A stretch of DNA of 64,000 nucleotides, from the NCBI GenBank assembly GCA_023404495.1, contig JAEYBE010000033.1, positions 72,032 to 136,031 of the forward strand. Direction: 5' to 3'. Of this stretch, positions 618 through 37,559 are shown one piece after another. The notes beneath the pieces were generated by a model, which saw only the letters and a list, made by a program, of their open reading frames with translations, searched no databases and was not told the DNA's origin. Both the position numbers and the translations under genes were made by a program. This DNA comes from Actinomycetes bacterium (GTDB lineage Bacteria > Actinomycetota > Thermoleophilia > Solirubrobacterales > JACPNS01). Within the stretch, counting starts at the first letter, position 1. Every line of letters begins with the position of its first letter.

Positions 618-1628
618 TCAACCTTCGTCGATCACGCGCGCGCGGCCGCGACGGATCGCCAGACGCGCGCCTTCGACCTGCAGCTCGCGCAGCTCGCCGC
701 CAGCGCCCAGGCGCAGCGCTTCGGAAAGCAGCCTGGCGGCCTTGGGCACCGGCACCGGCCGCCGCTCTTCGACGTAGTGGCGCAGCACCGCGCCGCCGAT
801 CGCCGGCGGCAGCTCAGAGAGTCCGTCGAGGTCCAGTGCGCCGTCCTCGGTGGTCAGCTCTGCGGTCAGGCGTTGGGTGACGCTTGAGAGTTCGTAGCTT
901 TCCTGGCGCAGATCGGCGACGGTTTGCAGCAGATTGGCAAATGCCGCAGGGTGCAGCTCCTCGGCGTCTGCCAGCAACTTGCGGGCGCGCACGCGCGCAA
1001 ATCGCTGATCGTCATTGGATGCATCCTCGCGCCATGCCTCGCCTTTGGACGAGAGCCACTCGCGCAGCTCGCTGCGCCTGATCCCAAGCAATGGGCGCAC
1101 GATCCGCCCGCGGCGGGCAGGCATGCCGGTGAGGGCCCGGCGTCCGGGTGAGGCGAAGAGCCGGTAGAGCACGGTCTCGGCCTGGTCATCGGCCGTATGG
1201 GCTGTGACGATCGCCGCGTCCTCGCCGGCCTGCTCGGCAATGCGCTCCGCCGCCGAGTAGCGCAGCTCGCGCGCCCAATCCTGCAGGTTGCCGGTCTGCG
1301 GTGAGCCGGCGTCTGCAACCGTCAGATCGACGCCCAGCCGCCGGCAGAGCTCGCGGCAGAACTGCGCGTCGCCCTCACTCTCGGCCCCGCGCAGTCCGTA
1401 GTTGACGTGCAGCGCCCGCAGGCCTGCTGGCGGCGCAAGCTCGCTGAGCGCAAGCAGCAGGGCAACCGAGTCGCCTCCACCCGAGAGCATCGCCACGAAC
1501 GGTGTCGATTCTGTCGGCGCGCCGAGCGCCGCCAGCTCTTGGCGGATCACTTCTGGCACGCCCGCGCAGGTTCCTGAAGCTTTCTGGTGGTTCATACGAC
1601 ATTCGTCCATACGACGATCGTCCAGCAA
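618..1628 (-). CDS. tilS: tRNA(Ile)-lysidine synthase
   Basis: 336-aa ORF with the PP-loop motif SGGGDS ([13 protein letters not shown]) and tilS-hpt synteny. The start is uncertain because in-frame ATGs also occur at 1610 and 1595. Confidence 0.85.
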
Positions 1629-1675
1629 TCGCGCTGCATATATGGACTCGCGCGCGCGTGCACGACAACAACATC

Positions 1676-3286
1676 GTGCACGGTGTCAGCACAGTATCTC
1701 TCGGCGGCCTGTCCGCTCGCGCATGGAAGCGCATCGGACTCGTCGCCGTGGTGCTGACCGCACTCCTCGCCGTCGTTCCAGAAGCTCGCGCCGCGTCCGA
1801 CACCGTCGCGGCCAGCCAGCAGCTGATCGTCGGCTTTGAGAACGGAACGAGTCGCTCGGAATCTGCCGCGATCATCAATGACACCGATGTATCGATCGCA
1901 CAGCGGCTTCCGGGCGGCGCGCTCCTGGTCGATGTCGACCCGGGCGAGAATCCCGCAGGCGTCGCCGACCAGCTCGAGTCCGATGGCGCCGTGCGCTACG
2001 CCACGCCCAACTTCGTGGTGCGCGCTTCCGAGGTCGCCAGCGACCCGCTGATCGCCAACGGCAGCATGTGGAACCTGCTGCGCGTGCACGCCCCTGCCGC
2101 GTGGGCGGCGACAACCGGGAGCGGCGCGGTGGTCGCGGTGCTCGACGCCGGCGTCAACCTGACCAACCCGGACATCGCCCCGAGCCTCTGGACCAACCCC
2201 GAGGAAGTTGCCGGCAATGGCCTCGACGACGACAACGACGGATTCGTCGACGACGTCAACGGCGCGGACTGGATCGACCGCGACGGCGCCCCGACCGACA
2301 CCAACGGTCACGGCACGCACGTCGCCGGGACGATTGCCGCGGCCGCAGGAAACGGATTTGGCGGCGCCGGCGTTGCTCCCGGCGCCAAGCTGATGCCGCT
2401 GCGCTTTCTCGACTCGCGCGGCTCGGGCACCGTTGCCGACGCGATCTCCGCGATTCAGTTCGCGATCAACCACCGGGTTGATGTGATCAACGCCAGCTGG
2501 GGCGGCCCCGACTACTCCCCCGCCCTGCGCGACGCATTCGCGCGCGCCGGCGCCGCAGGGATCACCGTTGTCGCCGCCGCCGGCAACGACGGCGTCTCAA
2601 ACGATTCTTCGCCGACCTACCCGGCAGCCTTCAGCCTGCCGAACCTGATCGCCGTCGCCGCCAGCGACCGCCGCGACCAGCTCGCAGCGTTCTCAAACTA
2701 CGGCCGCGGCGTCGCGGTCGCCGCACCGGGCGTCGGAATACTCAGCACCGAGGGCGCCGGCATCGGAACGATGAGCGGCACTTCGATGGCAGCACCCCAC
2801 GTCGCAGGCATCGCGGCGCTCGTGCACTCCTTCAACGAGTATCTCCCCCCGACCAGCGTGATCGCCGCGATCAGCGCAGGCTCAATCAAGAACCCCGCAC
2901 TCACGGGCCGGGTCAGCAGCGGTGGCGTCGCCGATGCCGCAGGTGCACTCCAGGCTGTCGGCGCGGAGGTTGCCGACATCGATCGCGGCACTGCCCCCGG
3001 GTCGTTCAAGCTCCGCAAGCCGGGCAAGCGCGTGCGCATCAAGGGCCGCCGCGGGTACGTGCGCTTTGCCTGGTCGAAGTCGCGTGACTCGGACCTGGTC
3101 GGCTACGACGTCGTCGTCAACGGCAAGGTGCGCGCGCAGGTTCGCTCGACGCACGCCCGCATCAAGGTGCCGGCAGGCAGGCTTACCTGGAAGGTCGTCG
3201 CTGTGGACGCCCAGGGGAACAGCACGACCGCATCGCGCTCGTCAAAGAGCAACGGAAGAATTGCCGTGCTTCGCAAGAAGCGGTAG
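1676..3286 (+). CDS. secreted subtilisin-like serine protease (peptidase S8)
   Basis: Subtilase motifs VAVLDAGV (Asp), HGTHVAGT (His), AAAGNDG (Asn) and [11 protein letters not shown] (Ser). It has a signal-like segment [21 protein letters not shown] and a basic Ig/FN3-like C-terminal tail. The ORF opens at 1502, which would overlap tilS, so GTG 1676 was chosen and the start is uncertain. Confidence 0.85.
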
Positions 3287-3339
3287 TTGCGGCTTCGGGC
3301 GGGCGAATTCGGGGTAAACACTGGCGTTATGCTTCCGCC

Positions 3340-4152
3340 GTGCGCCAATGCCTGAAATTCGCTTTGGCCGTCGGCGCCGTGGCGGCTGCGGCGTGCGGTG
3401 CCTCGACTCCCCCCGTTGCCGCAGCGGCCTCACCTCCGACGTTATCCGGAATATCCGGCTCGCTCCAACCGAGGACGCTGAAGTTTCGTCCGACCAAACG
3501 CACACCTATTCAAATGACTCTCCGGTCCCAAGAGAGCTTCGTCGCTGGCACGCCGACACGCGTAACTCTCAAGGTGAAGTTCGTCGACGTCCCGATGTGG
3601 GTCCGCACCCGCGGGAAAGTGAGAAAGATTCCAGCGTTCAAGCTCTTCAGTCGCATGCACGTCCGGCCGTCGCTTATCGCGATGGCCGCATCGTGTCGGC
3701 CGCTGGGTGGAAAACTTGAGGTCTACGATCCGAAATGCGCGCCGGAAGGCAATGGAAAAGCTCTCGGCTCCAAGACAATAGACCTCCCGCCCGTTGGTGA
3801 CAAGTTCACACGTATTCGGTTCGACATCGGAACTAGCTATGCATTCGACATGACTTTTGATCGCAATGCTAGAAAGGCGAAGTGGCTCCGAAGGAACCAG
3901 TCGGTAACCTGGCGAGCGCTGGTGACGTTCCCGAGATGCCTCGCACCTGACGCCTCGGGTCGGTACTCGGACCTTCCGAGAATCGCCACCTCTCCCTGCC
4001 AGCCAGGCGACCTTTCCGTAGGTACCACCTACACGCTTGCTGGAAAGACTTGGCGAGGCTCGGGATCAGAAGCGTTCAGAACATTTGGGAGCAACAAGCG
4101 TGGCAGCGTGACGATCTTCCCAGCGGGATGGCCCGCGAATTCCGTATCGTGA
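3340..4152 (+). CDS. hypothetical exported protein (possible lipoprotein)
   Basis: 270-aa ORF with an N-terminal signal-like segment MRQCLKFALAVGAVAAAACGAS containing a Cys after an Ala run. I recognise no family motif. GC is lower than the flanks. Confidence 0.55.
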   Translation: MRQCLKFALAVGAVAAAACGASTPPVAAAASPPTLSGISGSLQPRTLKFRPTKRTPIQMTLRSQESFVAGTPTRVTLKVKFVDVPMWVRTRGKVRKIPAFKLFSRMHVRPSLIAMAASCRPLGGKLEVYDPKCAPEGNGKALGSKTIDLPPVGDKFTRIRFDIGTSYAFDMTFDRNARKAKWLRRNQSVTWRALVTFPRCLAPDASGRYSDLPRIATSPCQPGDLSVGTTYTLAGKTWRGSGSEAFRTFGSNKRGSVTIFPAGWPANSVS

Positions 4153-4170
4153 GACTGGTCGGCGCCGGAT

Positions 4171-4241
4171 TCAGCTCTCGCGCGTCTCGACGCGGAAGAG
4201 TTCGATCGAGTCGTCAAAGCCCTTCAGGCGCACGTTGCCGA
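4171..4241 (-). pseudogene. orphan 3'-terminal fragment (last ~22 codons) of a MerR-HTH/class III cyclase paralog
   Basis: It translates to GNVRLKGFDDSIELFRVETRES*, against IGNVRLKGFDDSVELFRVETRD* at the end of the intact cyclase gene (6588..7886). Similarity stops abruptly at 4241/4242 and nothing upstream resembles a cyclase. Confidence 0.75.
4180..4241. repeat. 62-bp direct repeat, copy A (cyclase 3' end)
   Basis: 59/62 identical to 6594..6655 in the same orientation, 2414 bp apart. Confidence 0.9.
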
Positions 4242-4360
4242 GGCAACGGCCATATCGCGGCCCCGAACATCGAGCGTGACCGCTCGGTTTCCTCAGCTGC
4301 GAGTACCAACGCTGGCTCATCGACACGCTTGACAGAAAGTTCCAGTCTCGATACCGTGTT

Positions 4361-5233
4361 TTGATCGCAATCCTGCCGAAAGGGGCATACGTGCGCGTCT
4401 TGCTCGGCGCATCGCTATTCGTGATCGCCCTCGTGGGTGGCACGGCCACCGAAGCCTCCGCTCGGTCTGGCTCGCCTGAAGCCCTACAAGCTTCAGTAGC
4501 GTCAACCGCTCAATCCGGCAAAGTTCTGTTCATTGCTTCGACAGCGACTTTCGCCCCGCCGAAGGGCAAGTCGCACGCAAAGACCTGCAAGGGCAGGGTT
4601 TCGATGAAGGTTTCGCTTGGGGGCCGGAGGCAATCTGTTGCGCACCCTAAACTGAAGACTGTCGGACAGGCGTGCGCCGCGACGGGACGTCTGGCGGTCC
4701 CGGCGAATACCGTCGGCAAGTCGAAGGTGTTCTTCTACTCCTTCGGCGGGAATAAGGCCGTCAAGAAGTGGAACCTTTCACCTCGGTTGCGCGTCACGCC
4801 GCCGTTGAAAACTGGCGAAATGTTCTCGCTGACCCCAGCAAAGTGGTCCTTCTTCTCCGGACATACGAGCCTGCAGAAGCCACAGAACTGGCAGTTCGAG
4901 AGCGACGCGGGCGGATTCGTTCGCTACACGAACCGCGGCGGCACCCTTCGGTTCGATTGCACGGACGCTGTGAAGATCTCGATCCTCTGGGTCGGAGATC
5001 GATTGATCACCAGTTCCCATTCCGCTGGCTCGGCTGTTGTCAAATTTGAAGGTCGCGAGTCCGACGACGTCGGTGCCCACTTTTTGGCGGTGACCGGAGA
5101 AGCGCGGTTTCTGACCAGCGCGTTTGCCGTTGGATCACTGAAATTCGAAGGCGACGTTCAGTCGCCGGACGGGAGTTGGCACAAATGTTCTACCGCCTCA
5201 ATGCCGGTCAGCGTCGTGCGGATTCTGTTTTGA
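4361..5233 (+). CDS. hypothetical exported protein
   Basis: 290-aa ORF (TTG start, with an alternative GTG near 4391). It has the hydrophobic N-terminal segment VRVLLGASLFVIALVGGTATEASA and no motif I recognise. GC is about 52-57%. Confidence 0.55.
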   Translation: MIAILPKGAYVRVLLGASLFVIALVGGTATEASARSGSPEALQASVASTAQSGKVLFIASTATFAPPKGKSHAKTCKGRVSMKVSLGGRRQSVAHPKLKTVGQACAATGRLAVPANTVGKSKVFFYSFGGNKAVKKWNLSPRLRVTPPLKTGEMFSLTPAKWSFFSGHTSLQKPQNWQFESDAGGFVRYTNRGGTLRFDCTDAVKISILWVGDRLITSSHSAGSAVVKFEGRESDDVGAHFLAVTGEARFLTSAFAVGSLKFEGDVQSPDGSWHKCSTASMPVSVVRILF

Positions 5234-5235
5234 TT

Positions 5236-6525
5236 TTGCGCGCAACGACAACCTCGCGGAAAGTCATCGTCCGATGTTTGCTCCCAGCTGTGCTCGTGAT
5301 CGTCGCGACGGGGTGGATCGCGGCTGCGCCAGCCGCGGCAGCGGACGCGAAGGTGAGCGGATTCAAGTCGAAAAAGATCGTCCTCGGCAAGTCGATCGCC
5401 GGTATCAGCATTCCGGGTAAGACACGTCAGCTCAAGTCCTCATTCGGCCAAGGCAAGCAGTGTCGAAAGACGAAGCAGACCATTTCGGTCCTGATGGGTC
5501 CGCAAAAGCTCCTTGAATGCGTCGCGCCGCTGCGCAGCGATCGACCGTTCGTCCTCGCGTCTGGACACGTAGGGAAGAGGGGCGATCTAATCGGCGTGGT
5601 CAGTGCATGTGGGTACTCCTCCAAAGCGATTGACCACCTCAACTGCAGGGGCGGATTAGGCGAAATGACGATAGATCCCGGCGGGTACAAACTCGGTTAT
5701 CCATTGAGCGCGATGGGACAATTGAGCAACTCATTTTTAGATGCGACGCTCGAGCCGATCAAGTCGACTCCCGCCCAGGGCGCCAATCAGGTCGCGTGGC
5801 CTACGAAGGTCCTTGCACGGCAGTATCGGCACAACATGACCCAGCTGTTCTTTGCTCCAACCAACGGCGAACTCATGTCGGTTGTGATGCGCTGGGTCCC
5901 CTGGCGAGATTTTAGGCCGAGCTCAAACGCGATTGTCTTGGGCGAAAGGATGGCCGGGCTGAAACTGGGCGACTCACTGGCCGAGATGAAGAAGCGAATC
6001 AGCTCGAAGGAGTCGTTCGGCCGCTTTTCGTTCTGCGGCCGGTACTCCGGCAGTCGTCGTTGGTGCAGCATAAAGAACACTGAGCTCGGTCCGGTTTTCG
6101 ACGCTGTAACCCACAAGGGCCGGGTCGTCTACCTGCGGTCCGAGTGCCAATCGCTGAAACTCGCAGGCTACGCCTTGCTGCTGGGGGTAAAGAATGTCGA
6201 GAACACCGGTACGTCCATGCCGTGCGCAGAGGACAAAGTCAACATGCCCATCGTGCCGATCTTCGCGAAGCTCGGACAATCGCTTCCCCAGGTCGAGGCG
6301 AAGCTCGCCGGTTTTACCAAGCTCGACTCTCAGCTGAGCGTCCCGGAAGGGATTGGTTCAAGCCTTCACCCAACGTACCTCGATGACTTTTTCAATGTCA
6401 GCCTGATCTTTGACTCGAACCAAAGCGAGACCATCTTCTTCCGCGACAGCGCGACCTCGCGGACCATCCTGCAGTTCAGTTCCTCAGGGCGCCTGTACAA
6501 GGTCACGATCGGCGCGCTCAAATGA
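5236..6525 (+). CDS. hypothetical exported protein with internal G-x-x-L-G-x-S repeats
   Basis: The ORF opens at 5176, overlapping the upstream gene. TTG 5236 directly follows the upstream stop and precedes the signal-like segment VIVRCLLPAVLVIVATGWIAAAPAAAADA. No family is recognised. Confidence 0.55.
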   Translation: MRATTTSRKVIVRCLLPAVLVIVATGWIAAAPAAAADAKVSGFKSKKIVLGKSIAGISIPGKTRQLKSSFGQGKQCRKTKQTISVLMGPQKLLECVAPLRSDRPFVLASGHVGKRGDLIGVVSACGYSSKAIDHLNCRGGLGEMTIDPGGYKLGYPLSAMGQLSNSFLDATLEPIKSTPAQGANQVAWPTKVLARQYRHNMTQLFFAPTNGELMSVVMRWVPWRDFRPSSNAIVLGERMAGLKLGDSLAEMKKRISSKESFGRFSFCGRYSGSRRWCSIKNTELGPVFDAVTHKGRVVYLRSECQSLKLAGYALLLGVKNVENTGTSMPCAEDKVNMPIVPIFAKLGQSLPQVEAKLAGFTKLDSQLSVPEGIGSSLHPTYLDDFFNVSLIFDSNQSETIFFRDSATSRTILQFSSSGRLYKVTIGALK

Positions 6526-6587
6526 GCTGAGCGCACGGCGGCCACACAACTACGAGACGATCGCCCTCATATGCGCGTTCGGGGCCC

Positions 6588-7886
6588 CTAGTCGCGCGTC
6601 TCGACGCGGAAGAGTTCGACCGAGTCGTCGAAGCCCTTGAGGCGCACGTTGCCGATCGACACGAAGCGCAGGCCCAGCGCTTTGCGGTTTCTGACGTGCT
6701 CCTTGACCTGTGCGGTGGCAAGCACTTCATCGGCATCGGTGCGGTTGAGCACGCGGGCGGCCATGTTGATCGCGCCGCCGAAGTAGTCGCCGTCGCGGTA
6801 GAGCGCCTCGCCGAAGTCGATACCGATGCGCAGCTTGAAGGCGTGGTCGTCCTCTTCGGCCATCTCGACCGCCCAGCGCGCAAGGTCGCCCGGCTCTGAG
6901 CCAACCACCATCGCGCCGTCGCCGGTCAGCTTGATCAGGCGGGCCGAGTCCGGCAGAGTCGTCTCGATGTGCTGGCGCAGGTGGTCGGCCTGCTCGAAGG
7001 CCTTCTCCACGCCCATCTGCTCCGTGTAACGGGTGAATCCCGCGATGTCGACGAAGCAGATCGCCACGTTGAGGCGGCCGTCCGTGTGGTTTGTGCCCTT
7101 GCCCTGGACGTTCTCGATCTGGACCTGCTCGGTGTATTCCTGGAGGAAGCGCGAGTGCATGTACTCAAAGAGCGGCGAGATGTGCGGCAGCACGCCGCCG
7201 ATCATCTCGCCCATCACGTCGCTTACCTCCTGGGCGTCTGCGCCCTGCTGGAGCAGCGGTTCGTGCACGAACATCCGCACGAGCCTCGCCTCGGCGTCGG
7301 CGATGTCGGCAAACGCCTTGGCGGCCACGCGGATCACCTGCAGCACGGCTCCCAGGGGTACGCCGGCGTCGAGCACCTCTCTGACCCTGCGCAGCGCCTC
7401 GACGTCCTGGTCGGTGACGTGGTCGGTGTTCTGGATCGACATGCCCAGCGATAGCCAGATCTGCTCGGCGATCGGCATCTTCACGCCAGCGGCCTTGGCG
7501 GCTTCTTTGAGCGAATAGTGCTTGGACTCGACCGCAAAGAGCACATCCACCCCGCCCAGCGCAAGCCGCCCGTCGGCCGCGGCGCGGACGATCTCTTCGA
7601 GCGGCTGGCCGCTCTTTCTGAGCTGGCTGACGATGCGGGCGTGCGCGACGGCGGCGCTGGTCCAGGTGCCCTCGTACTGCGGGATCGCCCCAGCTTTTAT
7701 CCAGCGGCGCAGCGTCGCGACCGAAACGCCTGCGCGTTCGGCGACTTCCTCGTCGGTGGTCAGCTGCGCGACCTGCGCGCGGAACTCCTCAGTGTTCTGG
7801 GGTTCCGGAAGGTCGTCGGGGTTTACCCGGCGGGTTGTTGGGGATGACTTGGGCATCGGGGGATTGATCGCCCGCGGTGGCTGCAT
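6588..7886 (-). CDS. MerR-type HTH domain fused to a class III adenylate/guanylate cyclase
   Basis: The N-terminus carries an HTH (AERAGVSVATLRRWIKAGAIP). The C-terminus has class III cyclase motifs VAICFVDIAGFTRYTE, LIKLTGDGAMVVG and RIGIDFGEALYRDGDYFGGAINMAARV. Confidence 0.85.
   Translation of the reverse strand: MQPPRAINPPMPKSSPTTRRVNPDDLPEPQNTEEFRAQVAQLTTDEEVAERAGVSVATLRRWIKAGAIPQYEGTWTSAAVAHARIVSQLRKSGQPLEEIVRAAADGRLALGGVDVLFAVESKHYSLKEAAKAAGVKMPIAEQIWLSLGMSIQNTDHVTDQDVEALRRVREVLDAGVPLGAVLQVIRVAAKAFADIADAEARLVRMFVHEPLLQQGADAQEVSDVMGEMIGGVLPHISPLFEYMHSRFLQEYTEQVQIENVQGKGTNHTDGRLNVAICFVDIAGFTRYTEQMGVEKAFEQADHLRQHIETTLPDSARLIKLTGDGAMVVGSEPGDLARWAVEMAEEDDHAFKLRIGIDFGEALYRDGDYFGGAINMAARVLNRTDADEVLATAQVKEHVRNRKALGLRFVSIGNVRLKGFDDSVELFRVETRD
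6594..6655. repeat. 62-bp direct repeat, copy B (inside the intact cyclase 3' end)
   Basis: 59/62 identical to 4180..4241. The three differences are two synonymous changes and one Val/Ile change in the cyclase reading frame. Confidence 0.9.
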
Positions 7887-7995
7887 CGGCCTTCCTGGCC
7901 GGGGCCTGCGCGGGACTTGACGTGATCACTTGAGCCCAAATAGTTTCGCAGGCCGCGATGACGGCGAGATCACCGATTCAGGCGACCAGAAAAGC

Positions 7996-8022
7996 GAAAA
8001 GCCCGCAAACTGCGGGCTTTTC
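7996..8022 (-). terminator. rho-independent terminator hairpin downstream of the Lys/Ala-rich protein gene
   Basis: GAAAAGCCCGCA-aac-TGCGGGCTTTTC forms a 12-bp stem and is followed by a T-rich run on the minus strand. Confidence 0.65.
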
Positions 8023-8047
8023 TGCCATCTGGCGGTGATTCTTGTGG

Positions 8048-8683
8048 CTACTTTGAGGCCGGTTTCTTGGCCGCAGGCTTGCGAGCGGCCGGCTTCTTGG
8101 CTGCGGGCTTCTTTGCCGCAGGCCTCTTCGCGGCCGATGCCTTTGCCGCCGGCTTCTTGGCAGCAGGCTTGCGGGCGGCGCTGGCCGACGTGCGGCTGGC
8201 GCTGCGAGCGGCTGGCTTCTTGGCTGCCGGCTTCTTCGCCGCTGGCTTCTTGGCTGCGGGCTTCTTGGCGGCAGGCTTGCGAGCGGCCGGCTTCTTGGCG
8301 CTCGTCGAGCGACGCTTTGCGGCAGCAGAAGACGCGGGCTTGCGGGCCGGCTTCTTCGGAGCAGCACCCGGGGTCGCCGCGCGCACGCGGGCCTCGAGGT
8401 CGTTGAAGCGGTCCTCGAGCGAATTGATCAGATCGCGCGCGCTTTCGAGTTCGTCGGACGCGCTCTTGCGGATCTCGTCGGATGCTTTGCGCAGCTCCTC
8501 ACCGACGTTCTTGACTTCATCGACGATCGACCGGGAGAACCGGTCGGCCGCATCTGTCACCTCATCAAGCACACCCTTGGCGCGCTTGCGGTCGAAGTTG
8601 TCTCCAAGGGTCGCCTCGAAAGTCTTCTCGACGGCGGATCGGAGTTGGTCGGTGATGCCCTGTGCGGACTTTTTCGTAGCCAT
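8048..8683 (-). CDS. coiled-coil protein with Lys/Ala/Pro-rich (AAKKP-repeat) histone-H1-like / HbhA-like tail
   Basis: ATG 8683 (MATKKSAQG...) was chosen inside the longer ORF 8048..8875. A ~105-aa helical, charged N-terminal part is followed by a ~105-aa tail of PAAKKPAAKKPAARKP repeats. Confidence 0.7.
   Translation of the reverse strand: MATKKSAQGITDQLRSAVEKTFEATLGDNFDRKRAKGVLDEVTDAADRFSRSIVDEVKNVGEELRKASDEIRKSASDELESARDLINSLEDRFNDLEARVRAATPGAAPKKPARKPASSAAAKRRSTSAKKPAARKPAAKKPAAKKPAAKKPAAKKPAARSASRTSASAARKPAAKKPAAKASAAKRPAAKKPAAKKPAARKPAAKKPASK
8051..8365. repeat. coding low-complexity tandem repeat (about 15-nt AAKKP units)
   Basis: Repeated cttcttggc[n]gc[n]ggc units occur, and a longer internal duplicate (caggcttgcgagcggccggcttcttggc) appears near 8073 and 8272. 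Confidence 0.8.
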
Positions 8684-8710
8684 AGACGGCATACGATACC
8701 GGCGATCGCG

Positions 8711-9472
8711 ATGGCGCGCCTCGAAGACATCGAACTGCCAGAAGGCGATGCAGCGGGGACGCTGCACCTGAATCCGGCCGCGCAGTTTCATCCCAATGTC
8801 TTGCTGCCCGGCGACCCCGCGCGAGCGATGGCGATCGCCACCGATCAGCTGACCGCCCCGCGCATGTTCAACCACCGCCGCGGGCTGTGGGGCTACTCGG
8901 GTGAAACCGAGGCCGGCACCGGATTCACGATCCAGGCCAGCGGAATGGGCGGGCCGAGCGCGGCCATAGTCGTAGAGGAACTCTGTGATCTTGGCGCCGA
9001 AGTGATCGTGCGGGTTGGGACCTGCGGGGCGCTTGATCCGGAGGTGCGGTTGGGTGACCTTGTTGTTGTGACGTCTGCTGTTAGCGACGACGGCGCAAGC
9101 CGGGCGCTCGGCGCTGAAGATGAGATTGAAGGAGACGCCGAGCTGCGCGGGTGGTTGATCGCCGAGGCCGGCTTGACTTCACGGCGGGTGCATGCCGGGA
9201 AGGTGGCGACGGTCGACCTCTTTTATGACCCGGCTGCTGATGATCGCCACCGGGCGCTGGTCGCTCGCGGCGCCGTCGCCCTAGAAATGGAGGCCGCGGC
9301 GGTGTTCGCCGTGGCGGCGCGACGAGGAGTTCGGGCTGCCTGCTTGCTCGGCGTCACCGACGAGCTCTATCCAGAGGACAGCCGCGCGCGCCTCGACCAC
9401 GACGCGATCGGCGAACTAGGTCGCGACCTAGGCGCCGTAGCTGTGGCGTCCGTGTCTGCCGCGCGGAACTAA
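8711..9472 (+). CDS. nucleoside phosphorylase, PNP/UDP family 1 (purine- or uridine-phosphorylase-like)
   Basis: Motifs GMGGPSAAIVVEEL, RVGTCGAL and LEMEAAAVFAVA. ATG 8711 was chosen to avoid overlap with the divergent gene. Substrate cannot be assigned. Confidence 0.75.
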   Translation: MARLEDIELPEGDAAGTLHLNPAAQFHPNVLLPGDPARAMAIATDQLTAPRMFNHRRGLWGYSGETEAGTGFTIQASGMGGPSAAIVVEELCDLGAEVIVRVGTCGALDPEVRLGDLVVVTSAVSDDGASRALGAEDEIEGDAELRGWLIAEAGLTSRRVHAGKVATVDLFYDPAADDRHRALVARGAVALEMEAAAVFAVAARRGVRAACLLGVTDELYPEDSRARLDHDAIGELGRDLGAVAVASVSAARN

Positions 9473-9823: not shown

Positions 9824-11017
9824 GTGCCGATGACAGACTCGGCATCGCGCGTTGACGACGCGCCCACGGCCACTTCGCTCAATCGACTGGAGATCGACCG
9901 CCTAGCAACGGACATCGTTGCGGAGTACGGGCCGATGATCATGGGCGACGCATGCCGCTTCAGCGCCACGCGAGAGGATGCCGAAGACGCCTACCAGCGA
10001 GCGCTCGAGCTGCTACTGACCAAGGCGCCTTCAAATGACCGAGGCCAGTTGCTCCCGTGGCTGCGCACCGTCGTCCGCAACGAGGCGTTGCAGATCGCAA
10101 GGTCGCGGCAGAAGCGCGAGGTCGAAACCGCGCCACACAGGTTCGAGGGCGTCGAGTCGGCGCGGCGTGGCCCTGAATCAGCTGCAGAGGCCGCATCGGA
10201 GATCGAAATGGGATTCGAAGCGCTGGGGCGGCTGACCCAGGACCAGATCAAATGCATGCTCGCGCAAGCCGAAGGTCTTGAGTACCACGAAATTGCCGCA
10301 CGAACCGGATTCTCGAGGAGGAAAGTCACCCGGTGTCTCGAGCATGGGCGCGAGGCATTCGCAAAGCGTTTCGAGGCGATTGCTGCCGGGTCTGAATGCG
10401 AGCGCATGCAGCCGCTGATCCGGCGAGTGCTCCAGTCCGATGCTGCAGCGGCGCTCGAACTTCGTCCTCATCTCCGGCACTGCCTTGCCTGTCGCGCGCG
10501 GCTGCGGGCATATGAGTCGGCTCCTCGCGACGTCGCCGCCATGCTGCCGCCGGCAATCGTCATCACGCAACTCGCACCAACCGGCCTCCTCGCGCGGATT
10601 TCCGCCTGGTGGGAATCGTTGGCACTCCGATTCGCCTCGTTTGCCCCTGGCGGCACCGGCTGGTCCGAGATTGCCGTTGCGAAAAAGGTCGCCGCGATGG
10701 CGGCGATCGCCGCTGCCGCGTCGGGCGGAGGATTCGCCGCCGAGCGATACCTGCAACACGAAACAGGGTCGGCTTCGGACAGGGCGCCACGTGCCGGCAT
10801 CGCCGAGTCGCGCCCGATGTTCGACCCGCTGAGCGTGCCCGCACGAAAGCGCGATCGCCCTCGGAATCGCCGTAAGACCCGCTCCGATGACGCGAAAACA
10901 GAGGAAACCGCATCCGTGCCGCAGGCGGCGAATTCTGCAGCTCCGCCGGCGGCAACTCCAACCCCGGCCGACGACGGTTCGGCCGAATTCAGTCCCGAAT
11001 CGAGGTCCGCACCATGA
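9824..11017 (+). CDS. ECF sigma factor fused to a ZAS-type anti-sigma motif, a hydrophobic segment and a Pro/Ala-rich tail
   Basis: Sigma region 2-like DAEDAYQRALELLL...LLPWLRTVVRNEALQIARSR and region 4 HTH LTQDQIKCMLAQAEGLEYHEIAARTGFSRRKVTRCLEHGR. These are followed by HLRHCLAC (HxxxCxxC, nt 10469..10492), an Ala-rich hydrophobic segment (aa 283-306) and a disordered tail. The stop overlaps the next start (ATGA at 11014..11017). Confidence 0.8.
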   Translation: MPMTDSASRVDDAPTATSLNRLEIDRLATDIVAEYGPMIMGDACRFSATREDAEDAYQRALELLLTKAPSNDRGQLLPWLRTVVRNEALQIARSRQKREVETAPHRFEGVESARRGPESAAEAASEIEMGFEALGRLTQDQIKCMLAQAEGLEYHEIAARTGFSRRKVTRCLEHGREAFAKRFEAIAAGSECERMQPLIRRVLQSDAAAALELRPHLRHCLACRARLRAYESAPRDVAAMLPPAIVITQLAPTGLLARISAWWESLALRFASFAPGGTGWSEIAVAKKVAAMAAIAAAASGGGFAAERYLQHETGSASDRAPRAGIAESRPMFDPLSVPARKRDRPRNRRKTRSDDAKTEETASVPQAANSAAPPAATPTPADDGSAEFSPESRSAP

Positions 11018-14000
11018 GCCGTACGATCAAGCTAAGAACCTGTCACTTTGTCCTGAGTTGCTTCGTAGCGCTGACGTTGGTCGTCGTGTCAACACAGTCC
11101 GCCAACGCCGGCACGTACACGGTCAACCCGATTCCCTGTTCGACCGCCAGCCCAACATCAGGTCAAGACGGCTGGGCCTTCGGTGCGTACTGCGGGAATT
11201 TCAGCGCCTTCTACATGCAGCTGAACTCTACTCCCGACCACCCGGTCGGCTCTCCGGGCACGATCTTCTACACGAAGTACGGACGCGTGCGCAGCGGCGC
11301 AAGTATCACGCAGCTGACGCTCACACGCAGCTCCTCCGGACTTGAGCCCGACGCCCAAGGAACGCCGCGCATCACGCCAAGCTTTTGCCTGCGCACATCC
11401 GGCCTAGCTGACGGATGGACTGCTGCAAGCGACGGCGGTTGCGCAGTTCTCCCACTCAACAACAACGGTCAACCCGCGCTGACAGACAGCGGCAGCTTTA
11501 CGAACCTCACATACAACTCCAACTGCGGAGGCAACTGCGACGGCTTTCAAGTCCGCGCTCGCTCTGGCGCCACCGGCGGCTACCTGGGCATTTCAGGTAT
11601 TTCCGCAATCGTGGATGACACCACGAATCCCACAACTTCGATTGCGGCAGGCCCAGCGGCGAACTCAAATCAGTGGGTTCGCGGCGCGACTGTCGCAATC
11701 GCCGCCGACTCGTCGGACACCGGCGGCGGGATCAAGTCGACCGCCCTCACCATCCAGAGTCCGCTTACGACACTGAAGACGGTCTCCGCGAGCTGCGATT
11801 TCGCCACTTGGAACCCTTGCCCAACGACACGGAACTGGACCTCGACCTTCGACTCAACGCAAACGCAGGACGGCACCTACACGGCTCGCTACACCGCAAC
11901 CGACGCGGGCGACCGCACCGCCAGCAGCGCAAACTTCTCACTGCGCATCGACAACACCAATCCGGAGACGCCCAAGGACATCGAATCCCAAACCACCGGC
12001 ATGAACGGTTGGAGCTCATCAAACTCTTTCGCCGCCAGCTGGACGAATGGCATCGAAGTCGCCGAGACTCAGACGCAGTCAGGAATCAGCGCCGTCGTGG
12101 TCGACGTTGAGCCGACAACCGGATCTCAGACTGACCCGGCGGCCGTGGAAGTGCCGGTAGGGGGGAGCGCTTCGGGGATCTCCGCGACGCTTGACTCCGT
12201 CTCGGGAGTTACCGTGCCGACCGAGGGCGCCTGGACGCTTGAGCTTGCCCTCAAGGACCGCGCCGGCAACGTCTCGCCAGTTGGAGCCGGCAGTGACCCG
12301 GCGACTGACGGCAAGACGTCGATTGGTTGGGACACACTGCTCCCCGGATCTCCGGATGGTCAGGCAAATGGCTGGATCAGCCGCGATGAACTTGCAGCTG
12401 GGTTTGATCAGGAGTTCTCGTACGTGGCGCCAGTCGGTGCTCAAGCACCTGTCTGCGGCTTCGCCGGCGCGATCGACAAAAACATCAACGGCACCACCGG
12501 AACCTCAATCAACGTCCCTGGCGGTGGCGACGCGAAGACGTGGCGCCTCCCCGGCACACTCGATGAAGCCACCCACTACGTCCACCTTCGCGCCGTCAGT
12601 TGCAACGGGACCGTTTCTCAAGCAACAACCACTGTCGCAGCTCCCGTCGACCGCACCGACCCAGTCGGCTCGATCGACGGAGTTGAGGACGGCAATTGGT
12701 ATCAGGACGGCAAGGCCGTGACCCTCAGCGCGGTCGACACCCTTTCTGGCATGGCGCCAGCCGACCCGATCGAACCAAAGTCAACCGCTGGCGCATACCT
12801 CTCATACCGCGTTAACGGAAGCGGTCCAGCAGACGACGATTCTCCTCGCGGAGGCTCCACAGTCGTAAACGTCACCGGCGAAGGCCAGAAGACCCTCGAG
12901 TTCTCCCCGGTCGACTTCGCGAGCAACAGAGCTGTCGCGAAGACTGTCAACTTCGGCATTGACGCAACCGACCCGATCGGCTACGTCAAGTACCCGAACA
13001 GCGCCAAGCCCACGCTGCTTGAAGCATCGCTCAGCGACGTGCCTTCGGGCGTCTCCTACGCGGTCTTCTCAATCAAGAGGCAAGGGGGAGGATCCTGGGA
13101 AGACCTCCCTACCGGAACCACCGCCCAGGGCGGATCCAATGTTCTCGCCTCGGCGCGCTTCCCGGACACCGAGAAAGACGCCGGCACATATGACGTGCGG
13201 GTCCGCGCCTATGACCAGGCAGGCAACGCGCTGGCCACCCAGCGCTACCAGAACGGCCAGGTTGCAACGGTCGAAAACCCGATGAGGAGCAAGACCGAAA
13301 TTGACGTGAAGCTCTTCAAGGCACTTCGCACCTGCACGATCACCAAGAAGAAGAGCGGCAAGAAGACCAAGTGCATCGTCAAGAAGTGCACCAAGAAGAG
13401 CAAGGGCACGTGTTATCGCGTTCTGCGCGGTCGCGTTGTGCTCGTCGGCGGCTCCAAAGCCGTCACGTCCGAGTTCAAGCGCGGAGCACAGGCCGTTGGC
13501 GTCCTTTCCGACGAGAACGGCAAGCCGCTGGCAAACACCGACGTCAAGATCTCCACGACCGAGAAGTTCTCGGGCAAGCAGTCACTTGTCGGCGAGACTC
13601 GGACCGATTCCAACGGCATCTACAGCCTGCGCGTTCCGGCCGGCACCAACCGCACCGTTCGCGCCACATATGAGGGCAGCGAGACCCGCCGGCCGACTTC
13701 AACCACCGGCGAGCTCTCGACCCGAGCCAAGATGACGATAAAGCTCAGCAAGAAGCGCGCCCGCACGGGCCAGAGCGTCACCTTCTCCGGCAAGGTCACT
13801 CCGTTTGACGCAGTCATTCCCAAGGGCGGCAAGATTGTCGCGCTGCAGTTCTACGCAGCCAAGAAGTGGCGGCCAGCTGTTGGCGTTGCCCACACCGACG
13901 CAAACGGCAAGTTCAGGATCAAGTACACGTTCGACGGAGCGAAGGTGAAGGCAAAGATCATCTTCCGCGTTGTTGCCCCTTCAGAAGATGGCTGGGGTCA

Positions 14001-14046
14001 CGCCTACAGCGTGTCTAAGCCGAAGGTGATTCGCCTGAACTTCTAG
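11014..14046 (+). CDS. large secreted multi-domain protein with Ig-like repeats and a CarboxypepD_reg-like module
   Basis: 1010 aa with the signal peptide MSRTIKLRTCHFVLSCFVALTLVVVSTQSANA. Module boundaries recur as D-x-T-x-P (VDDTTNPT, IDNTNPET, VDRTDPVG, IDATDPIG) with D..SG[IVM] motifs. It also has a Lys/Cys-rich linker CTITKKKSGKKTKCIVKKCTKKSKGTC and a C-terminal GVLSDENGKPLANTDVKI...TDSNGIYSLRVPAG module. Confidence 0.7.
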   Translation: MSRTIKLRTCHFVLSCFVALTLVVVSTQSANAGTYTVNPIPCSTASPTSGQDGWAFGAYCGNFSAFYMQLNSTPDHPVGSPGTIFYTKYGRVRSGASITQLTLTRSSSGLEPDAQGTPRITPSFCLRTSGLADGWTAASDGGCAVLPLNNNGQPALTDSGSFTNLTYNSNCGGNCDGFQVRARSGATGGYLGISGISAIVDDTTNPTTSIAAGPAANSNQWVRGATVAIAADSSDTGGGIKSTALTIQSPLTTLKTVSASCDFATWNPCPTTRNWTSTFDSTQTQDGTYTARYTATDAGDRTASSANFSLRIDNTNPETPKDIESQTTGMNGWSSSNSFAASWTNGIEVAETQTQSGISAVVVDVEPTTGSQTDPAAVEVPVGGSASGISATLDSVSGVTVPTEGAWTLELALKDRAGNVSPVGAGSDPATDGKTSIGWDTLLPGSPDGQANGWISRDELAAGFDQEFSYVAPVGAQAPVCGFAGAIDKNINGTTGTSINVPGGGDAKTWRLPGTLDEATHYVHLRAVSCNGTVSQATTTVAAPVDRTDPVGSIDGVEDGNWYQDGKAVTLSAVDTLSGMAPADPIEPKSTAGAYLSYRVNGSGPADDDSPRGGSTVVNVTGEGQKTLEFSPVDFASNRAVAKTVNFGIDATDPIGYVKYPNSAKPTLLEASLSDVPSGVSYAVFSIKRQGGGSWEDLPTGTTAQGGSNVLASARFPDTEKDAGTYDVRVRAYDQAGNALATQRYQNGQVATVENPMRSKTEIDVKLFKALRTCTITKKKSGKKTKCIVKKCTKKSKGTCYRVLRGRVVLVGGSKAVTSEFKRGAQAVGVLSDENGKPLANTDVKISTTEKFSGKQSLVGETRTDSNGIYSLRVPAGTNRTVRATYEGSETRRPTSTTGELSTRAKMTIKLSKKRARTGQSVTFSGKVTPFDAVIPKGGKIVALQFYAAKKWRPAVGVAHTDANGKFRIKYTFDGAKVKAKIIFRVVAPSEDGWGHAYSVSKPKVIRLNF

Positions 14047-14191
14047 GTCAGCAAGCTTCAGCGTGATGCACTTGAGTGCCCTGGCCTATCCGGCCGCGGC
14101 GCTCTGGCGAAGCCGTGTGTTCGACATGTTCTTTGCGAGCTCGGTGCGCGCAAGGACCACGCGCCTCACGCCGATATAACAACAACTAGTC

Positions 14192-17100
14192 ATGTTCGCC
14201 AGAGAAGCCACCCGCCGCCTGATTGCGATGCAAGCCTTTGCCCTTGCTCTGGGCATAACTGTCGCGATCCAGCTCACGACCAGGGCAAGCTCCGCTCCGG
14301 CAACTCCTCCGGCCGCCAAGGTGAGCGCGCAGACCTATGCCCTTGCAGCTGAGTCACAGACGATCCTGGTGAACATTCGCCTGACCAAGACGACGCTGAT
14401 CGCCAGTCTCTCCGATGACGCCAAAGCCCTTCTTGCCACCACCCAGGGCACGACCGCGGCTCGCCGCGCGGCGCAGCGAAACCCGCAAGTGAAATCAAAC
14501 GCCGAGGTCGTTGCCGCTTCGATCGCCGAGAGTTCTCGCAACGCAGCTCTTCCGGCAATTCGCCGCGCAGCAAAAGGAGGCATCGCGCAGAGCAACGTGA
14601 TGCAAGACCTGATCGCCCGCCGCGGCGCGAAGGTCATCTCTGCATCGCCGCTGCCAAACCAGATCGTTGCAAGGATTCCGGCGTCGCTGCTCGCCGAGCT
14701 TGAACGCAATCCGAATGTTGCCAGTGTGACGACAGCCAAGCTGCCAGTGTGGATGAGCGGACCCGGTGATGAGTCCTACGTCTGGCGCAACGCCGGCTTC
14801 ACAGGCCAGGGCAGCTCGCTAGACGGCAAGGGCAGCCCGGATTTCGTCGTCGTCGACACCGGCGCTCGCACGACGCACAACTACTTCAAATCTCGGCTTC
14901 CGGAAGATTGCCCAACCTGCGACGGCACCGGGCCATCCCGCATCACATCACCAGTCGTTCGCAACGACTTCTCCGGTTCCAAGCACACCAACGTGATCGT
15001 CGGGCAAGTCGCAAGTACCGCGCTGAGTACTTCCGCCGACACCGGTATGGCCTACGGCATCGACAAGGTCTACGACGCATACCAGGCATACAGTCCCTAC
15101 CTCTGGCTGCTTGGAATCAGCGCACCCAGACCAAGCAATTACTCGACCAGCCTCCCCGCCAGCGACCCTGGCCTTGGCGGCCTAGACGATCTGCCGGAAG
15201 TTTTCAATTACAGCGCCGGCATCTACGAGGACACGACAGACCTGAACACCGACTGGCGCTTTTTTGATTCGCTTGAAGCCAATTACGGGATGCTCACCAC
15301 CGTTAGCGCCGGCAACTGCGGTATCGCCACACCATCTTTCACAAACTGCGCCGACGGGCCGCACCGCGTCTCCACTCCCACCACCAACTACAACGTCCTC
15401 AGCGTCGGCGCCATGCAATCGCCCACCGTATATCCAGACACTTCCGGCTACGAGGCCTGGGAAAACACATCGCCAGGACCGACATGGGGGGGACGCAAGA
15501 AGCCCGACGTGATCACATCGCCGTTCAGCACCGGCGGCAACGCTTCTCAGCTCAACGACACCGGCGACGCAACCGGAATCGGCTCCGGCACCAGCTACGC
15601 CGCCCCCAAAGCCGCAGCCGGCGCACTCCTTCTCGCATCAGTCGGCGTCTACAAGCCCACCGCACAAAAAGCCATTCTGATCAACTCGGCAACGCCAGTG
15701 CAAGGCCAGACCTACTGGATGCCGCGAACCGGCTGGGGGGCGCTGAGCCTCGACAAGGCCTTCACCCAGCGCGGCAATTACGCCAACGCTGAAGTCCACG
15801 GCGCAGGGCCAAACTCCGCCCGCTTCTTCGAGACGACCGGAGTTTCGGTAGGAGACAGGGCCACGCTGGTCTGGAACCGCCGCACCGGCACCGAGTCGGT
15901 GCTCGACCCCAGCTATTACAACCTCACCAACCTCGACCTCTCGCAGATCTCGCCAGCTGACTCCACTGGCGCAACAGTGACCTCGACTGGCGGATCCGAT
16001 GCGGCGGACACGGTCGACACCGACCAGACCTTCACCGACGACAACCCGATGCCCGGCAACGGAGACGACGGCGGCGACAACGTTGAGCAGATCCGCTCTA
16101 CAGCCACGGGAACGCAGATCCTCAAGGTCAAGGCACTCTCGAGCGTCGACGGCGCCACCACAGAGCCCTTCTCGATCGCCGCGCGCAATCCCGTGAATGC
16201 GATCGCCAGCCCGATCGCCAGCGTCGATGCATCGCCAAGCACGGCTCTCGCCGGCCCTGGCCAAAGCGTCACGATAAATGCGACCAGTTCCAATCCATCA
16301 AGCGCGCTCGCCCTCACCGGCGCCCAGGCGACAATCAACTTGCCCGGTGGAGTTTCGCTCACCGCCGGCACAGCCACGCAAAGTCTCGGCACGCTGGCCT
16401 CCGGCTCACCGGCCGCGGCCAGCTGGACCGTGCAGGGCTCTGCCACCGGCGTAAAGAACATCACCGTCACCACAAGCGGCACTGCCTACGGAGAAACCTT
16501 CGCGGGATCCGACGCAGCAGACTTCACAGTCGACGCCGACCCGCCAATCTTGACGCTCGATTCCAAGCCGCAGTTCTCGCCGAGCAGCTCGCCGAGCTTC
16601 TCTTGGTCTGCCGCTGATGCACTCAGCTCAGTCGCGAGCTACGACGCAGAGGTTCAGATCGACGGCGGCAGCTGGACACAGGTGCTTGATGCCAGCACCG
16701 ACACTTCTTACGAGGCCTCAGGCTCAGATGGCCAGCTCGTCGCAGTGCGCGTTCGCGCGCGCGACACCTTTGGAAACCTGTCGGACTGGTCTGAAGCATC
16801 AACAACGATCGACACCTCGCCGCCGGTCGTCAACTTCGGGCCCTCCAGCTCGCCGGTCCGCGGGGCTATCGCCGTGCCGGTCTCCGTCTCGAGCGCAGGT
16901 TCTCCCGTCACGAGCTCCTCCTACTCCTTCGCGCCCGGCGCGACAGCCGCGGCCCTACCGCTTCCCGCCAGTCCGACGTACTTCAACAAGCTCGACTCGG
17001 CCGTGCAAGCAACGCTGATTGTTACGGCAACAGATGCGCTCGGCCGCGCGACCACCCGCAGCCAGATCTACACCGCCGGACCCAAGCGACTCGCGCCCGC

Positions 17101-17368
17101 ACTGCGCATCTCAAGCGCCAAGGCCAAGCGCCGAGTTGCAACCGTTTCGGGGACGATCGCCAAAGAGGCCGCCGGCACCATCTTCGTGACAATCCAGCGC
17201 ACCACCAAGAAGGGGACGCGCCGCGTCGTCAAGGAAGTACGCGCCTCCGGTGGCCGATACAAGGCGAAGATCCGCCTAAAGCCTGGTCGCTACAAGGCGA
17301 CGGTGCTTTGGCCAGGGTCGACGTCACTCACGCGTCAATCGTTGACGCGCCAACTGACCGTCCGGTAG
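14192..17368 (+). CDS. secreted S8-family subtilase with C-terminal CARDB/FN3-like and basic Ig-like domains
   Basis: 1058 aa. Motifs are FVVVDTGA (Asp), a divergent His region SKHTNVIVGQ, TVSAGNCG (Asn) and GSGTSYAAPKAAAGALLL (Ser). It has an N-terminal hydrophobic signal and an I9-like propeptide. There is no LPXTG. Confidence 0.75.
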   Translation: MFAREATRRLIAMQAFALALGITVAIQLTTRASSAPATPPAAKVSAQTYALAAESQTILVNIRLTKTTLIASLSDDAKALLATTQGTTAARRAAQRNPQVKSNAEVVAASIAESSRNAALPAIRRAAKGGIAQSNVMQDLIARRGAKVISASPLPNQIVARIPASLLAELERNPNVASVTTAKLPVWMSGPGDESYVWRNAGFTGQGSSLDGKGSPDFVVVDTGARTTHNYFKSRLPEDCPTCDGTGPSRITSPVVRNDFSGSKHTNVIVGQVASTALSTSADTGMAYGIDKVYDAYQAYSPYLWLLGISAPRPSNYSTSLPASDPGLGGLDDLPEVFNYSAGIYEDTTDLNTDWRFFDSLEANYGMLTTVSAGNCGIATPSFTNCADGPHRVSTPTTNYNVLSVGAMQSPTVYPDTSGYEAWENTSPGPTWGGRKKPDVITSPFSTGGNASQLNDTGDATGIGSGTSYAAPKAAAGALLLASVGVYKPTAQKAILINSATPVQGQTYWMPRTGWGALSLDKAFTQRGNYANAEVHGAGPNSARFFETTGVSVGDRATLVWNRRTGTESVLDPSYYNLTNLDLSQISPADSTGATVTSTGGSDAADTVDTDQTFTDDNPMPGNGDDGGDNVEQIRSTATGTQILKVKALSSVDGATTEPFSIAARNPVNAIASPIASVDASPSTALAGPGQSVTINATSSNPSSALALTGAQATINLPGGVSLTAGTATQSLGTLASGSPAAASWTVQGSATGVKNITVTTSGTAYGETFAGSDAADFTVDADPPILTLDSKPQFSPSSSPSFSWSAADALSSVASYDAEVQIDGGSWTQVLDASTDTSYEASGSDGQLVAVRVRARDTFGNLSDWSEASTTIDTSPPVVNFGPSSSPVRGAIAVPVSVSSAGSPVTSSSYSFAPGATAAALPLPASPTYFNKLDSAVQATLIVTATDALGRATTRSQIYTAGPKRLAPALRISSAKAKRRVATVSGTIAKEAAGTIFVTIQRTTKKGTRRVVKEVRASGGRYKAKIRLKPGRYKATVLWPGSTSLTRQSLTRQLTVR

Positions 17369-22036: not shown

Positions 22037-22067
22037 TGGTGGCGGGAGCGTACCTGACGCAGCGACC

Positions 22068-22109
22068 GACAAAGATGCAGCTTTGTCGTACGACAAAGCT
22101 GCATCTTTG
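22068..22109 (-). terminator. perfect 42-bp palindrome between ahcY and the S1 protease gene
   Basis: ACAAAGATGCAGCTTTGTCG-TA-CGACAAAGCTGCATCTTTGT lies 10 nt downstream of the ahcY stop on the minus strand. Confidence 0.6.
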
Positions 22110-22118: not shown

Positions 22119-23567
<1,449 letters not shown>

Positions 23568-27281: not shown

Positions 27282-27347
27282 GCCTCGAACTTCCCAATCC
27301 CTGGCCATCGTCCAAAGGCTATATCGCCGGCCGGGCAAATGTCGTTA

Positions 27348-37259: not shown

Positions 37260-37559
37260 ATGAGCCGCGAAGAAATCGTCACAGCGACCGGGATCGTGAT
37301 GTTCTTCTGGGACTCCGGCGACGAGGAGCGGCATCTGCTCGTCAACATCGAGCCGGATGATCACCACAAGCCCGACGCGTTCGAGCTGACCGGTGACCTA
37401 CGCGACTCGGCGATCGAGAAGATCGCCGAAGGCGCGCGCGTCGAGGTCGACTATCTGGTCGAACACCACGAGGTCGTCGATCCGGACGGCGCGACGACAC
37501 TCGACTCGAGCCGGCCGAACATCGTCGAGGTTCGGATCGACCTGACTAGCGGAGCTTGA
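37260..37559 (+). CDS. hypothetical small acidic protein
   Basis: 99 aa from ATG 37260 inside the longer ORF 37074..37559. No motif is recognised. It converges on and overlaps the zincin gene by 14 nt. Confidence 0.4.
   Translation: MSREEIVTATGIVMFFWDSGDEERHLLVNIEPDDHHKPDAFELTGDLRDSAIEKIAEGARVEVDYLVEHHEVVDPDGATTLDSSRPNIVEVRIDLTSGA

Follow-up and report, generated by a model that had tools for sequence, protein, structure and literature searches.

We describe a small hypervariable islet in a 64,000-nt stretch of genomic DNA from an Actinomycetes bacterium of the class Thermoleophilia, order Solirubrobacterales (assembly GCA_023404495.1, contig JAEYBE010000033.1, positions 72,032 to 136,031 of the forward strand), referred to below as the window. 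The islet lies between two convergent genes, one encoding an S8 subtilase and the other a class III cyclase with a MerR-type helix-turn-helix (HTH) domain. In relatives, this slot either contains no gene or has one or two fast-evolving genes for secreted proteins. In the window, it holds three genes (orfL, orfA and orfB, in that order) and, between the first two, an orphan copy of the cyclase 3' end. Our preferred reading, to which we give a probability of about 0.5, is that two alleles of the islet were merged by integrase-independent recombination of the homology-facilitated illegitimate recombination (HFIR) type. A sequence-only reading of the same DNA had instead proposed an integrative element at the 3' end of the cyclase gene. 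Although the topology resembles that of attL and attR, the evidence favours integrase-independent recombination between alleles of a resident islet.

The duplicated gene end was recovered by a repeat search as a 64-nt direct repeat (4178-4241 and 6592-6655, 2414 nt apart) with 61 of 64 positions (95%) identical and a longest exact run of 28 nt. The sequence-only reading had reported a 62-bp repeat with 59/62 identity, which holds and extends a further 2 nt on the left. A degenerate 51-nt pattern of the repeat matches the 64-kb window twice, at the two copies, and has no match in 100 shuffles. Copy A (4171-4241, - strand) is 71 nt long and corresponds to the in-frame 3' end of a MerR-cyclase allele without the rest of the gene (...GNVRLKGFDDSIELFRVETRES, ending in ETRES, TGA stop): on the minus strand it reads ...LGNVRLKGFDDSIELFRVETRES, with the stop codon at 4171-4173. 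Copy B (6588-6655, - strand) is the live 3' end of the cyclase gene (...GNVRLKGFDDSVELFRVETRD, ending in ETRD, TAG stop) and reads ...SIGNVRLKGFDDSVELFRVETRD, with the stop codon at 6588-6590. These minus-strand readings bear out the earlier description of a live end and an orphan end that differ by one codon (ETRES against ETRD). At the codon level, the mismatches are CTG/CTC (Leu) and TTT/TTC (Phe), both synonymous, and ATC/GTC (Ile/Val), as originally stated; beyond these three, the copies differ by the one-codon indel and by their stop codons (TGA versus TAG). Copy A is convergent with orfL and placed 18 nt downstream of the orfL stop. Its likeness to the cyclase breaks off abruptly at 4241/4242, and nothing cyclase-like is found upstream of it.

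Both copies look like the ends of working alleles from closely related genomes. Copy A is 94% identical to the cyclase end of the closest relative, L001, which it matches up to GAGAGCT, followed by the 18-nt spacer and the orfL stop. Its ...RES C-terminus is that of the two closest lineages (L001 and L002), and its Ile codon and AGC-TGA ending are also present in a natural allele, that of L023. The end of copy B is that of L001 less one GAG (CGCGA[GAG]CTAG). The RES and RD endings, the Ile and Val residues and the TGA and TAG stops all occur among natural cyclase orthologues. Where L001 has GAG and CTG, both copies have GAA and ACG. Each copy therefore has the other as its nearest relative, which argues that the parental genomes were close relatives too. 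The earlier proposal that the copies diverged as coding sequence is right in that the changes are in frame, but with three sites it is a statistically weak argument: by our own estimate, at least two synonymous changes out of three are expected in ~18% of neutral cases. On our preferred reading, copy A is a recombination scar that would have no function by itself.

Comparison with related genomes defines the islet. We used 19 related loci, namely 11 Thermoleophilaceae/Solirubrobacterales metagenome-assembled genome (MAG) loci from a one-genome-per-species scan and eight distinct loci from the contexts of cyclase orthologues. Synteny is the same in all 19: hpt, tilS and the subtilase gene are followed by the convergent cyclase gene, a histone-like protein gene and PNP. 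The slot between subtilase and cyclase is empty (gap of -2 to ~56 nt) in nine of the loci (L001, L004, L005, L006, L007, L008, L009, L011 and L023), is occupied by orfA-family genes in nine and by another gene in one. In L002, L003, L015, L017, L018, L020, L022 and L026, the slot has a single gene for a ~300-aa secreted protein, which runs in the direction of the subtilase gene and whose stop codon abuts that of the cyclase; L025 has two tandem paralogues of the orfA-family gene, and L010 an unrelated 488-aa gene. The L025 paralogues (4440-6212; 277 and 295 aa, 36% identical) indicate that the islet also grows by local gene duplication. Two further variants were seen: L003 has an additional 328-aa gene that, judged by eye, may be parvulin/SurA-like, and the orfA-family gene of L002 (10759-11760) is split over two frames (124-aa and 333-aa open reading frames [ORFs]) by either a pseudogene frameshift or a MAG sequencing error.

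The extent of the added DNA is set by L001, whose cyclase is 98% identical to that of the window at the amino acid level and ~91% at the DNA level. Its alignment covers only window positions 9186 to 6592 and 3259 to 3; the cyclase and subtilase stop codons of L001 overlap in GCTAGC and leave no intergenic DNA. What L001 lacks is thus 3287-6587 (3301 bp, 59.3% GC) rather than 4242-6655, and as this segment includes orfL, copy A lies inside the variable segment and not at its edge. The sequence-only reading was correct to see an insertion relative to close relatives (L001 and the eight other empty loci), but not in the bounds it gave. It had also predicted an empty site in which the cyclase body joins copy A and the flank at 3340-4152; no such site was found, the cyclase body is joined to orfL in none of the 19 loci, and the empty site that does exist lacks the 3340-4152 gene. 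In the empty relatives (L001 2598-2612; L007 ~3519), the overlap of the convergent stop codons falls within the palindrome GCTAGC, and any insertion at this overlap must regenerate both the cyclase and the subtilase stop codon.

Base composition gives a similar outline. GC content is 59.3% in 3287-6587, compared with 68.8% in 618-3286 and 66.2% in 6588-9472, and third-position GC is 0.65-0.74 in orfL, orfA and orfB versus 0.79-0.88 in the flanking genes. The two samples quoted in the earlier reading are correct (5641-5760, 52.5%; 7201-7260, 65.0%), and the low GC it described is real; the tract, however, runs from ~3300 to 6590 and takes in orfL, to the left of copy A.

The middle gene of the islet, orfA (4391-5233, + strand), encodes a 280-aa protein with a signal peptide; its best start is a GTG at 4391. 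The protein is 26-32% identical (BLASTP, E 1e-6 to 1e-18) to the islet proteins of L002, L003, L015, L017, L018, L020, L022, L025 and L026, and the hidden Markov model (HMM) of this family aligns over residues 3-278. By these alignments orfA is a full-length, strongly diverged member of a locus-resident family of ~300-aa secreted proteins, so at least part of the putative cassette is a resident kind of gene and not foreign cargo. The sequence-only reading had taken orfA and orfB for two orphan genes carried in from elsewhere, a view that stands for the orphan status of orfB and fails for orfA, whose family occupies the same slot in nine relatives. A word-indexed search with the orfA protein returned only orfA itself, and a single-sequence AlphaFold2 model was unusable (mean predicted local distance difference test score [pLDDT] of 31). 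No repeats were found at the nine relatives' loci with orfA-family genes. Members of the family share 19-59% identity with one another, compared with 74-93% for the adjacent cyclases, and the order of the pairs by pairwise identity, the only measure compared, differs in places between the two: L020 and L022 share 43% in the islet protein and 91% in the cyclase, L018 and L026 58% and 82%. Allele exchange through the conserved flanks would produce such a pattern.

The other two islet genes have no counterpart at the related loci. The protein encoded by orfB (5236-6525, + strand; 429 aa, or 446 aa from 5185 according to the gene caller) has a signal peptide, and its gene a good coding signal (GC at the first, second and third codon positions of 0.54, 0.47 and 0.74). 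No relative of it was found at E<=0.001 among 1.84 billion representative proteins besides itself, nor any family match in Pfam, NCBIfam or PHROGs; orfB is, as far as these searches can tell, a genuine ORFan. The gene nearest the subtilase, orfL (3340-4152, + strand), starts 53 nt after the subtilase stop codon and is predicted to encode a 270-aa protein with a lipoprotein-like signal peptide (the gene caller gives 212 aa, starting at 3514). Its coding signal is weak (0.55, 0.58 and 0.65), a word-indexed search found no relatives, there was no Pfam, NCBIfam, PHROG or plasmid match, and it is carried only by contigs of the same sample. Exact-protein look-ups of orfL, orfA and the cyclase likewise returned same-sample contigs only, a single arrangement of the locus is on record, and a scan of Joint Genome Institute (JGI) metagenomes for strain variants gave one distant match. 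As distant members of the orfA family, orfL and orfB were considered and set aside, the family HMM scoring them at E 0.16 and 0.018, respectively (Z=1).

The repeat, the empty site, the resident status of the orfA family and the lack of recombinases in the window are all observed; from them we infer two parental alleles, a direction of transfer and a mode of recombination. The first would have had the order subtilase-orfL-cyclase, with the cyclase ending in ...ETRES-TGA, and the second the order subtilase-orfA-orfB-cyclase, with the cyclase ending in ...ETRD-TAG. DNA from a close relative would have entered by homologous recombination on one side, in the cyclase gene or equivalently in the subtilase gene, and by an illegitimate join on the other side, at 4241/4242, in one cyclase allele and 71 nt before its stop codon. 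Such a course of events is termed HFIR; the same product would be expected if a circularised fragment were taken in by a RecA-type single crossover, and an integrase would be required in neither case. Rather than one allele replacing the other, the two would have been joined in tandem, such that the exchange became additive: an intact cyclase gene would be kept, with copy B as its end, and the last 71 nt of the other allele would be stranded between orfL and the promoter region of orfA.

Several features of the window fit such a merger of alleles. Together, orfL and copy A form a well-shaped subtilase-orfL-cyclase end unit, with gaps of 53 nt and 18 nt, which supports it. An abrupt non-homologous joint, as HFIR would leave, is present together with a 71-nt remnant of the resident allele, and the cyclase gene (67-98% amino acid identity across the related loci) and the subtilase gene are conserved homologous anchors beside the added DNA.

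Other observations count against a merger of alleles. Neither parental allele was found in any public genome or metagenome, and orfL and orfB are known only from this one sample. Among the 20 loci examined the duplicated gene end is unique to the window, so no recurrent process is demonstrated. The last ~150 nt of the cyclase gene differ from L001 at 15.9% of positions and the rest of the gene at 6.9% (change-point near 6735, permutation p 0.03), as an imported tract might; but positions 6656-6735 evolve about twice as fast as the gene body in most pairs compared, and the signal favours neither view. HFIR is rare in experiments (PMC5361080; PMC3240628). Finally, the topology of the product is that of attL and attR, and a recombinase acting in trans is therefore compatible with the sequence.

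Site-specific integration is accordingly the first alternative to be weighed. It supposes that an orfA-orfB element whose attP included the last ~64-71 nt of the cyclase gene entered the 3' end of that gene with orfL already downstream, its integrase being lost later or always supplied in trans; copy B would then be attL and copy A attR of a remnant resembling a cis-mobilizable element (CIME). A segment bounded by direct repeats, one of them a live gene end, is what this account predicts, the lineage-typical RES ending of copy A is expected of a displaced native end, and the low GC of the segment agrees with it. Recombinase sites could be represented by the inverted repeat with a 2-nt centre at the left junction and by a 10-nt inverted match close to the two ends of the cassette (both described below), and CIMEs, which have lost their integration genes and kept attL and attR, are documented (PMC5704250).

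Against these points stand the results of our searches for mobility genes. As the sequence-only reading had noted, no recombinase is present: Pfam scans covering the window found no integrase or transposase among its ~55 ORFs, and showed housekeeping genes (SecA, RF2, NadA/NadC, the ATP synthase operon and others) and a few toxin-type genes. There are no tRNA, tmRNA or Rfam matches in the window, and the 3.3-kb islet segment has no phage, plasmid or PHROG similarity. At the subtilase-cyclase site, the 19 related loci contain no recombinase, no integrase-bearing or repeat-flanked element and no duplicated cyclase or subtilase end. The orfA family resides at the locus without repeats, the empty site disagrees with the repeat boundaries, and the junction of the hypothetical excised circle has no marked structure (z=-1.9). 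Had cassettes accreted in tandem at an att site, a third repeat would be expected at the subtilase edge; local alignment of the subtilase boundary (3287-3345) for a degenerate third copy was no better than shuffles (p 0.8). We therefore consider integration at the gene end unlikely.

A second alternative is local rearrangement within one genome, in which the cyclase end was duplicated or gene-converted in situ, for example by template switching at the junction palindrome, and then acquired three substitutions and a one-codon change. The mutual closeness of the copies (61/64, with GAA and ACG in common against L001) speaks for it, as do the palindrome, which is of a type that promotes template switching, and the tandem duplication that does occur in this islet in L025. 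Tandem duplication is nevertheless a poor fit to the window, where the sequence between the copies duplicates nothing, and a rearrangement offers no mechanism for the simultaneous insertion of 2.35 kb. The differences between copies, which are all in frame and produce endings seen in natural alleles, are a better fit with divergence in working genes, with the little power that three sites afford. We regard local rearrangement as improbable.

More speculatively, the cyclase 3' end could be a dedicated attachment site for integrase-less cassettes of ORFan secreted proteins that depend for their movement on a recombinase gene in another part of the genome, which we find very improbable. If it were so, crossover would take place at the palindrome at 4233-4248, each cassette would bring a copy of the gene end to make the target whole again, and the locus would be a case of cassette capture at a protein-coding gene in Thermoleophilia. 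Least credible is a metagenome assembly chimera of two co-existing strains with different islet alleles: the source is a MAG-type scaffold and the alleles would share cyclase-end k-mers (the 28-nt exact run being the longest), but the window is 100% identical to ENA scaffold L012 and to the independent Logan contig L013 (run SRR13366727) across both copies and all junctions, an agreement between different pipelines that makes an assembler-specific artefact unlikely, each copy retains its own distinct differences, and a chimera needs shared sequence at 4241/4242, beyond which nothing matches.

The left junction is marked by a palindrome at 4233-4248 (CGTTGCC-GA-GGCAACG, 7-2-7) whose right arm begins exactly at 4241/4242. 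Only 0.12% of window positions have a 7-nt inverted repeat placed in this way; the hairpin energy of the palindrome is unexceptional (z=-0.3). A palindrome so placed would fit with processing of DNA ends where an illegitimate join was made. The adjoining orfA leader (4242-4390, + strand; 149 nt, non-coding) contains TTGACA (4328-4333) followed after 17 nt by TACCGT, which we tentatively read as a candidate orfA promoter, and an AAAGGGG ribosome-binding site before the GTG at 4391. A consensus promoter and terminator scan of 3200-6800 called nothing at the junctions. The possibility that 4242-4390 is the remnant of a donor subtilase end was rejected, as blastn and tblastx matched it to none of the loci and to no subtilase end.

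At the right end, a 62-nt spacer (6526-6587) separates the orfB stop codon from that of the cyclase and holds GTTCGGGGCC, the inverse of GGCCCCGAAC in the orfA leader. In this perfect 10-nt inverted match, the left arm (4259-4268) is set 17 nt in from one end of the orfA-orfB segment and the right arm (6577-6586) 1 nt in from the other; the chance of such a match is ~0.003-0.01 when counting is confined to the outermost 60 nt on each side. Two classes of element were considered for this segment and rejected. A transposon, insertion sequence (IS) or miniature inverted-repeat transposable element (MITE) does not fit a segment with only a 10-nt inverted match at its ends, a duplication of 64-71 nt and no transposase. 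An integron cassette was discounted on the lack of an integrase, of an extended hairpin in the joined ends and of an Rfam match.

Among known systems, displacement of a resident module with a remnant kept by HFIR has been proposed for type VI secretion system (T6SS) effector-immunity arrays and for Rhs loci (PMC5361080). The T6SS arrays of Vibrio cholerae and the C-terminal displacement of Rhs and contact-dependent inhibition (CDI) loci (PMC5361080) resemble the islet in that a conserved gene serves as the anchor, a module is added without an integrase, and the resident version that is pushed aside is retained as a remnant with a short piece of the conserved gene. They are unlike it in that variation there affects the conserved gene's own C-terminal toxin domain and that their orphan arrays are under immunity selection. 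In the window the gene end is a bystander flank, there is one scar, the cargo is secreted and without assigned function, and HFIR is what we infer.

Replacement flexible genomic islands, whose content is swapped through homologous recombination between conserved flanks (Lopez-Perez et al. 2014, PMC4033161), share with the islet a fixed position among syntenic core genes, variable content, apparently exposed or secreted products and atypical composition. The islet, which behaves like a miniature of this type, is much smaller (0-3 genes), a peak of synonymous substitutions looked for at its boundary is not separable from the generally fast evolution of that part of the cyclase gene, and the outcome in the window is additive with a scar rather than a clean replacement. 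CIMEs (PMC5704250) are similar in being integrase-less segments between direct repeats, with the working 3' end of a protein-coding gene as one of the two. By comparison, the site in the window has no known integrase-bearing relative, the cargo includes a locus-resident family, the empty site is off the repeat boundaries, and the two repeats agree at 95% of positions rather than fully, with different stop codons.

Recombination scars, displaced gene ends and hypervariable islets are all known, and the locus adds a further case from a lineage that has received little study; the finding leaves current understanding of recombination or of mobile elements unchanged. It provides a single-nucleotide view of a tiny hypervariable slot growing by addition beside a secreted subtilase in an uncultivated actinobacterial lineage. 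Gene-end repeats resembling att sites can arise without a mobile element, and heuristics for finding genomic islands may misread them; a duplicated gene end with low-GC ORFans is by itself insufficient to indicate an integrative element. The fast-evolving orfA family, possibly under diversifying selection, and orfB may be of interest for surface-protein turnover and gene birth.

The flanking genes are conserved. The subtilase gene (1502-3286, + strand; the gene caller places the start later, giving 542 aa) has Peptidase_S8 (E 5e-56) and Fervidolysin N-pro domains, and is syntenic and convergent with the cyclase gene in all related loci. The cyclase (6588-7886, - strand; 432 aa) has MerR_1, Ad_Cy_reg and Guanylate_cyc domains and 71 orthologues at E<=1e-100. 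Within its gene, an 80-nt stretch at 6736-6815, which encodes the GDYFGGAINMAARV region, shows 90-99% nucleotide identity among relatives, against only 78-92% for their gene bodies; this suggests unusual constraint on synonymous sites. The next gene (8048-8683, - strand) encodes a histone-H1-like protein rich in Lys, Ala and Pro whose tail-coding sequence consists of 15-nt tandem units (AAKKP-type repeats). Its match to the Pfam family HC2 scores 34.6 bits and so falls short of the cutoff of 40 for that family; all relatives have the gene in synteny, with tails of varying length. Between the histone-like and PNP genes, L020 (3350-4345) and L022 (1807-5017) have a beta-lactamase-fold gene, and L022 also has a gene for an AAA_14/DUF4143 ATPase; neither is present in the window.

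A further variable spot lies beyond these genes. At 9824-17368 (+ strand), a gene resembling those of extracytoplasmic function (ECF) sigma factors is followed by genes for two secreted proteins of ~1000 aa with faint Big_13 and CarboxypepD_reg matches. This block is kept in several relatives; L015 and L016 have five other genes instead, one of them with an SLFN_AlbA_2 domain. Two S-adenosylhomocysteine hydrolase paralogues (22119-23567 and 40672-41967, both - strand) and two trypsin-like secreted proteases (20924-22096 and 25806-27338, both - strand) occur within 20 kb. Three adjacent ORFs at 37546-39582 (- strand; 350, 167 and 148 aa) have no Pfam match and an unusually low first-position GC of 0.49-0.58. 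Toxin-type genes are scattered among the housekeeping genes: a PIN domain gene at 32701-33093 (+ strand), a Fic/DOC gene at 47137-48195 (- strand) and an AbiEii nucleotidyltransferase toxin gene at 62912-63760 (- strand).

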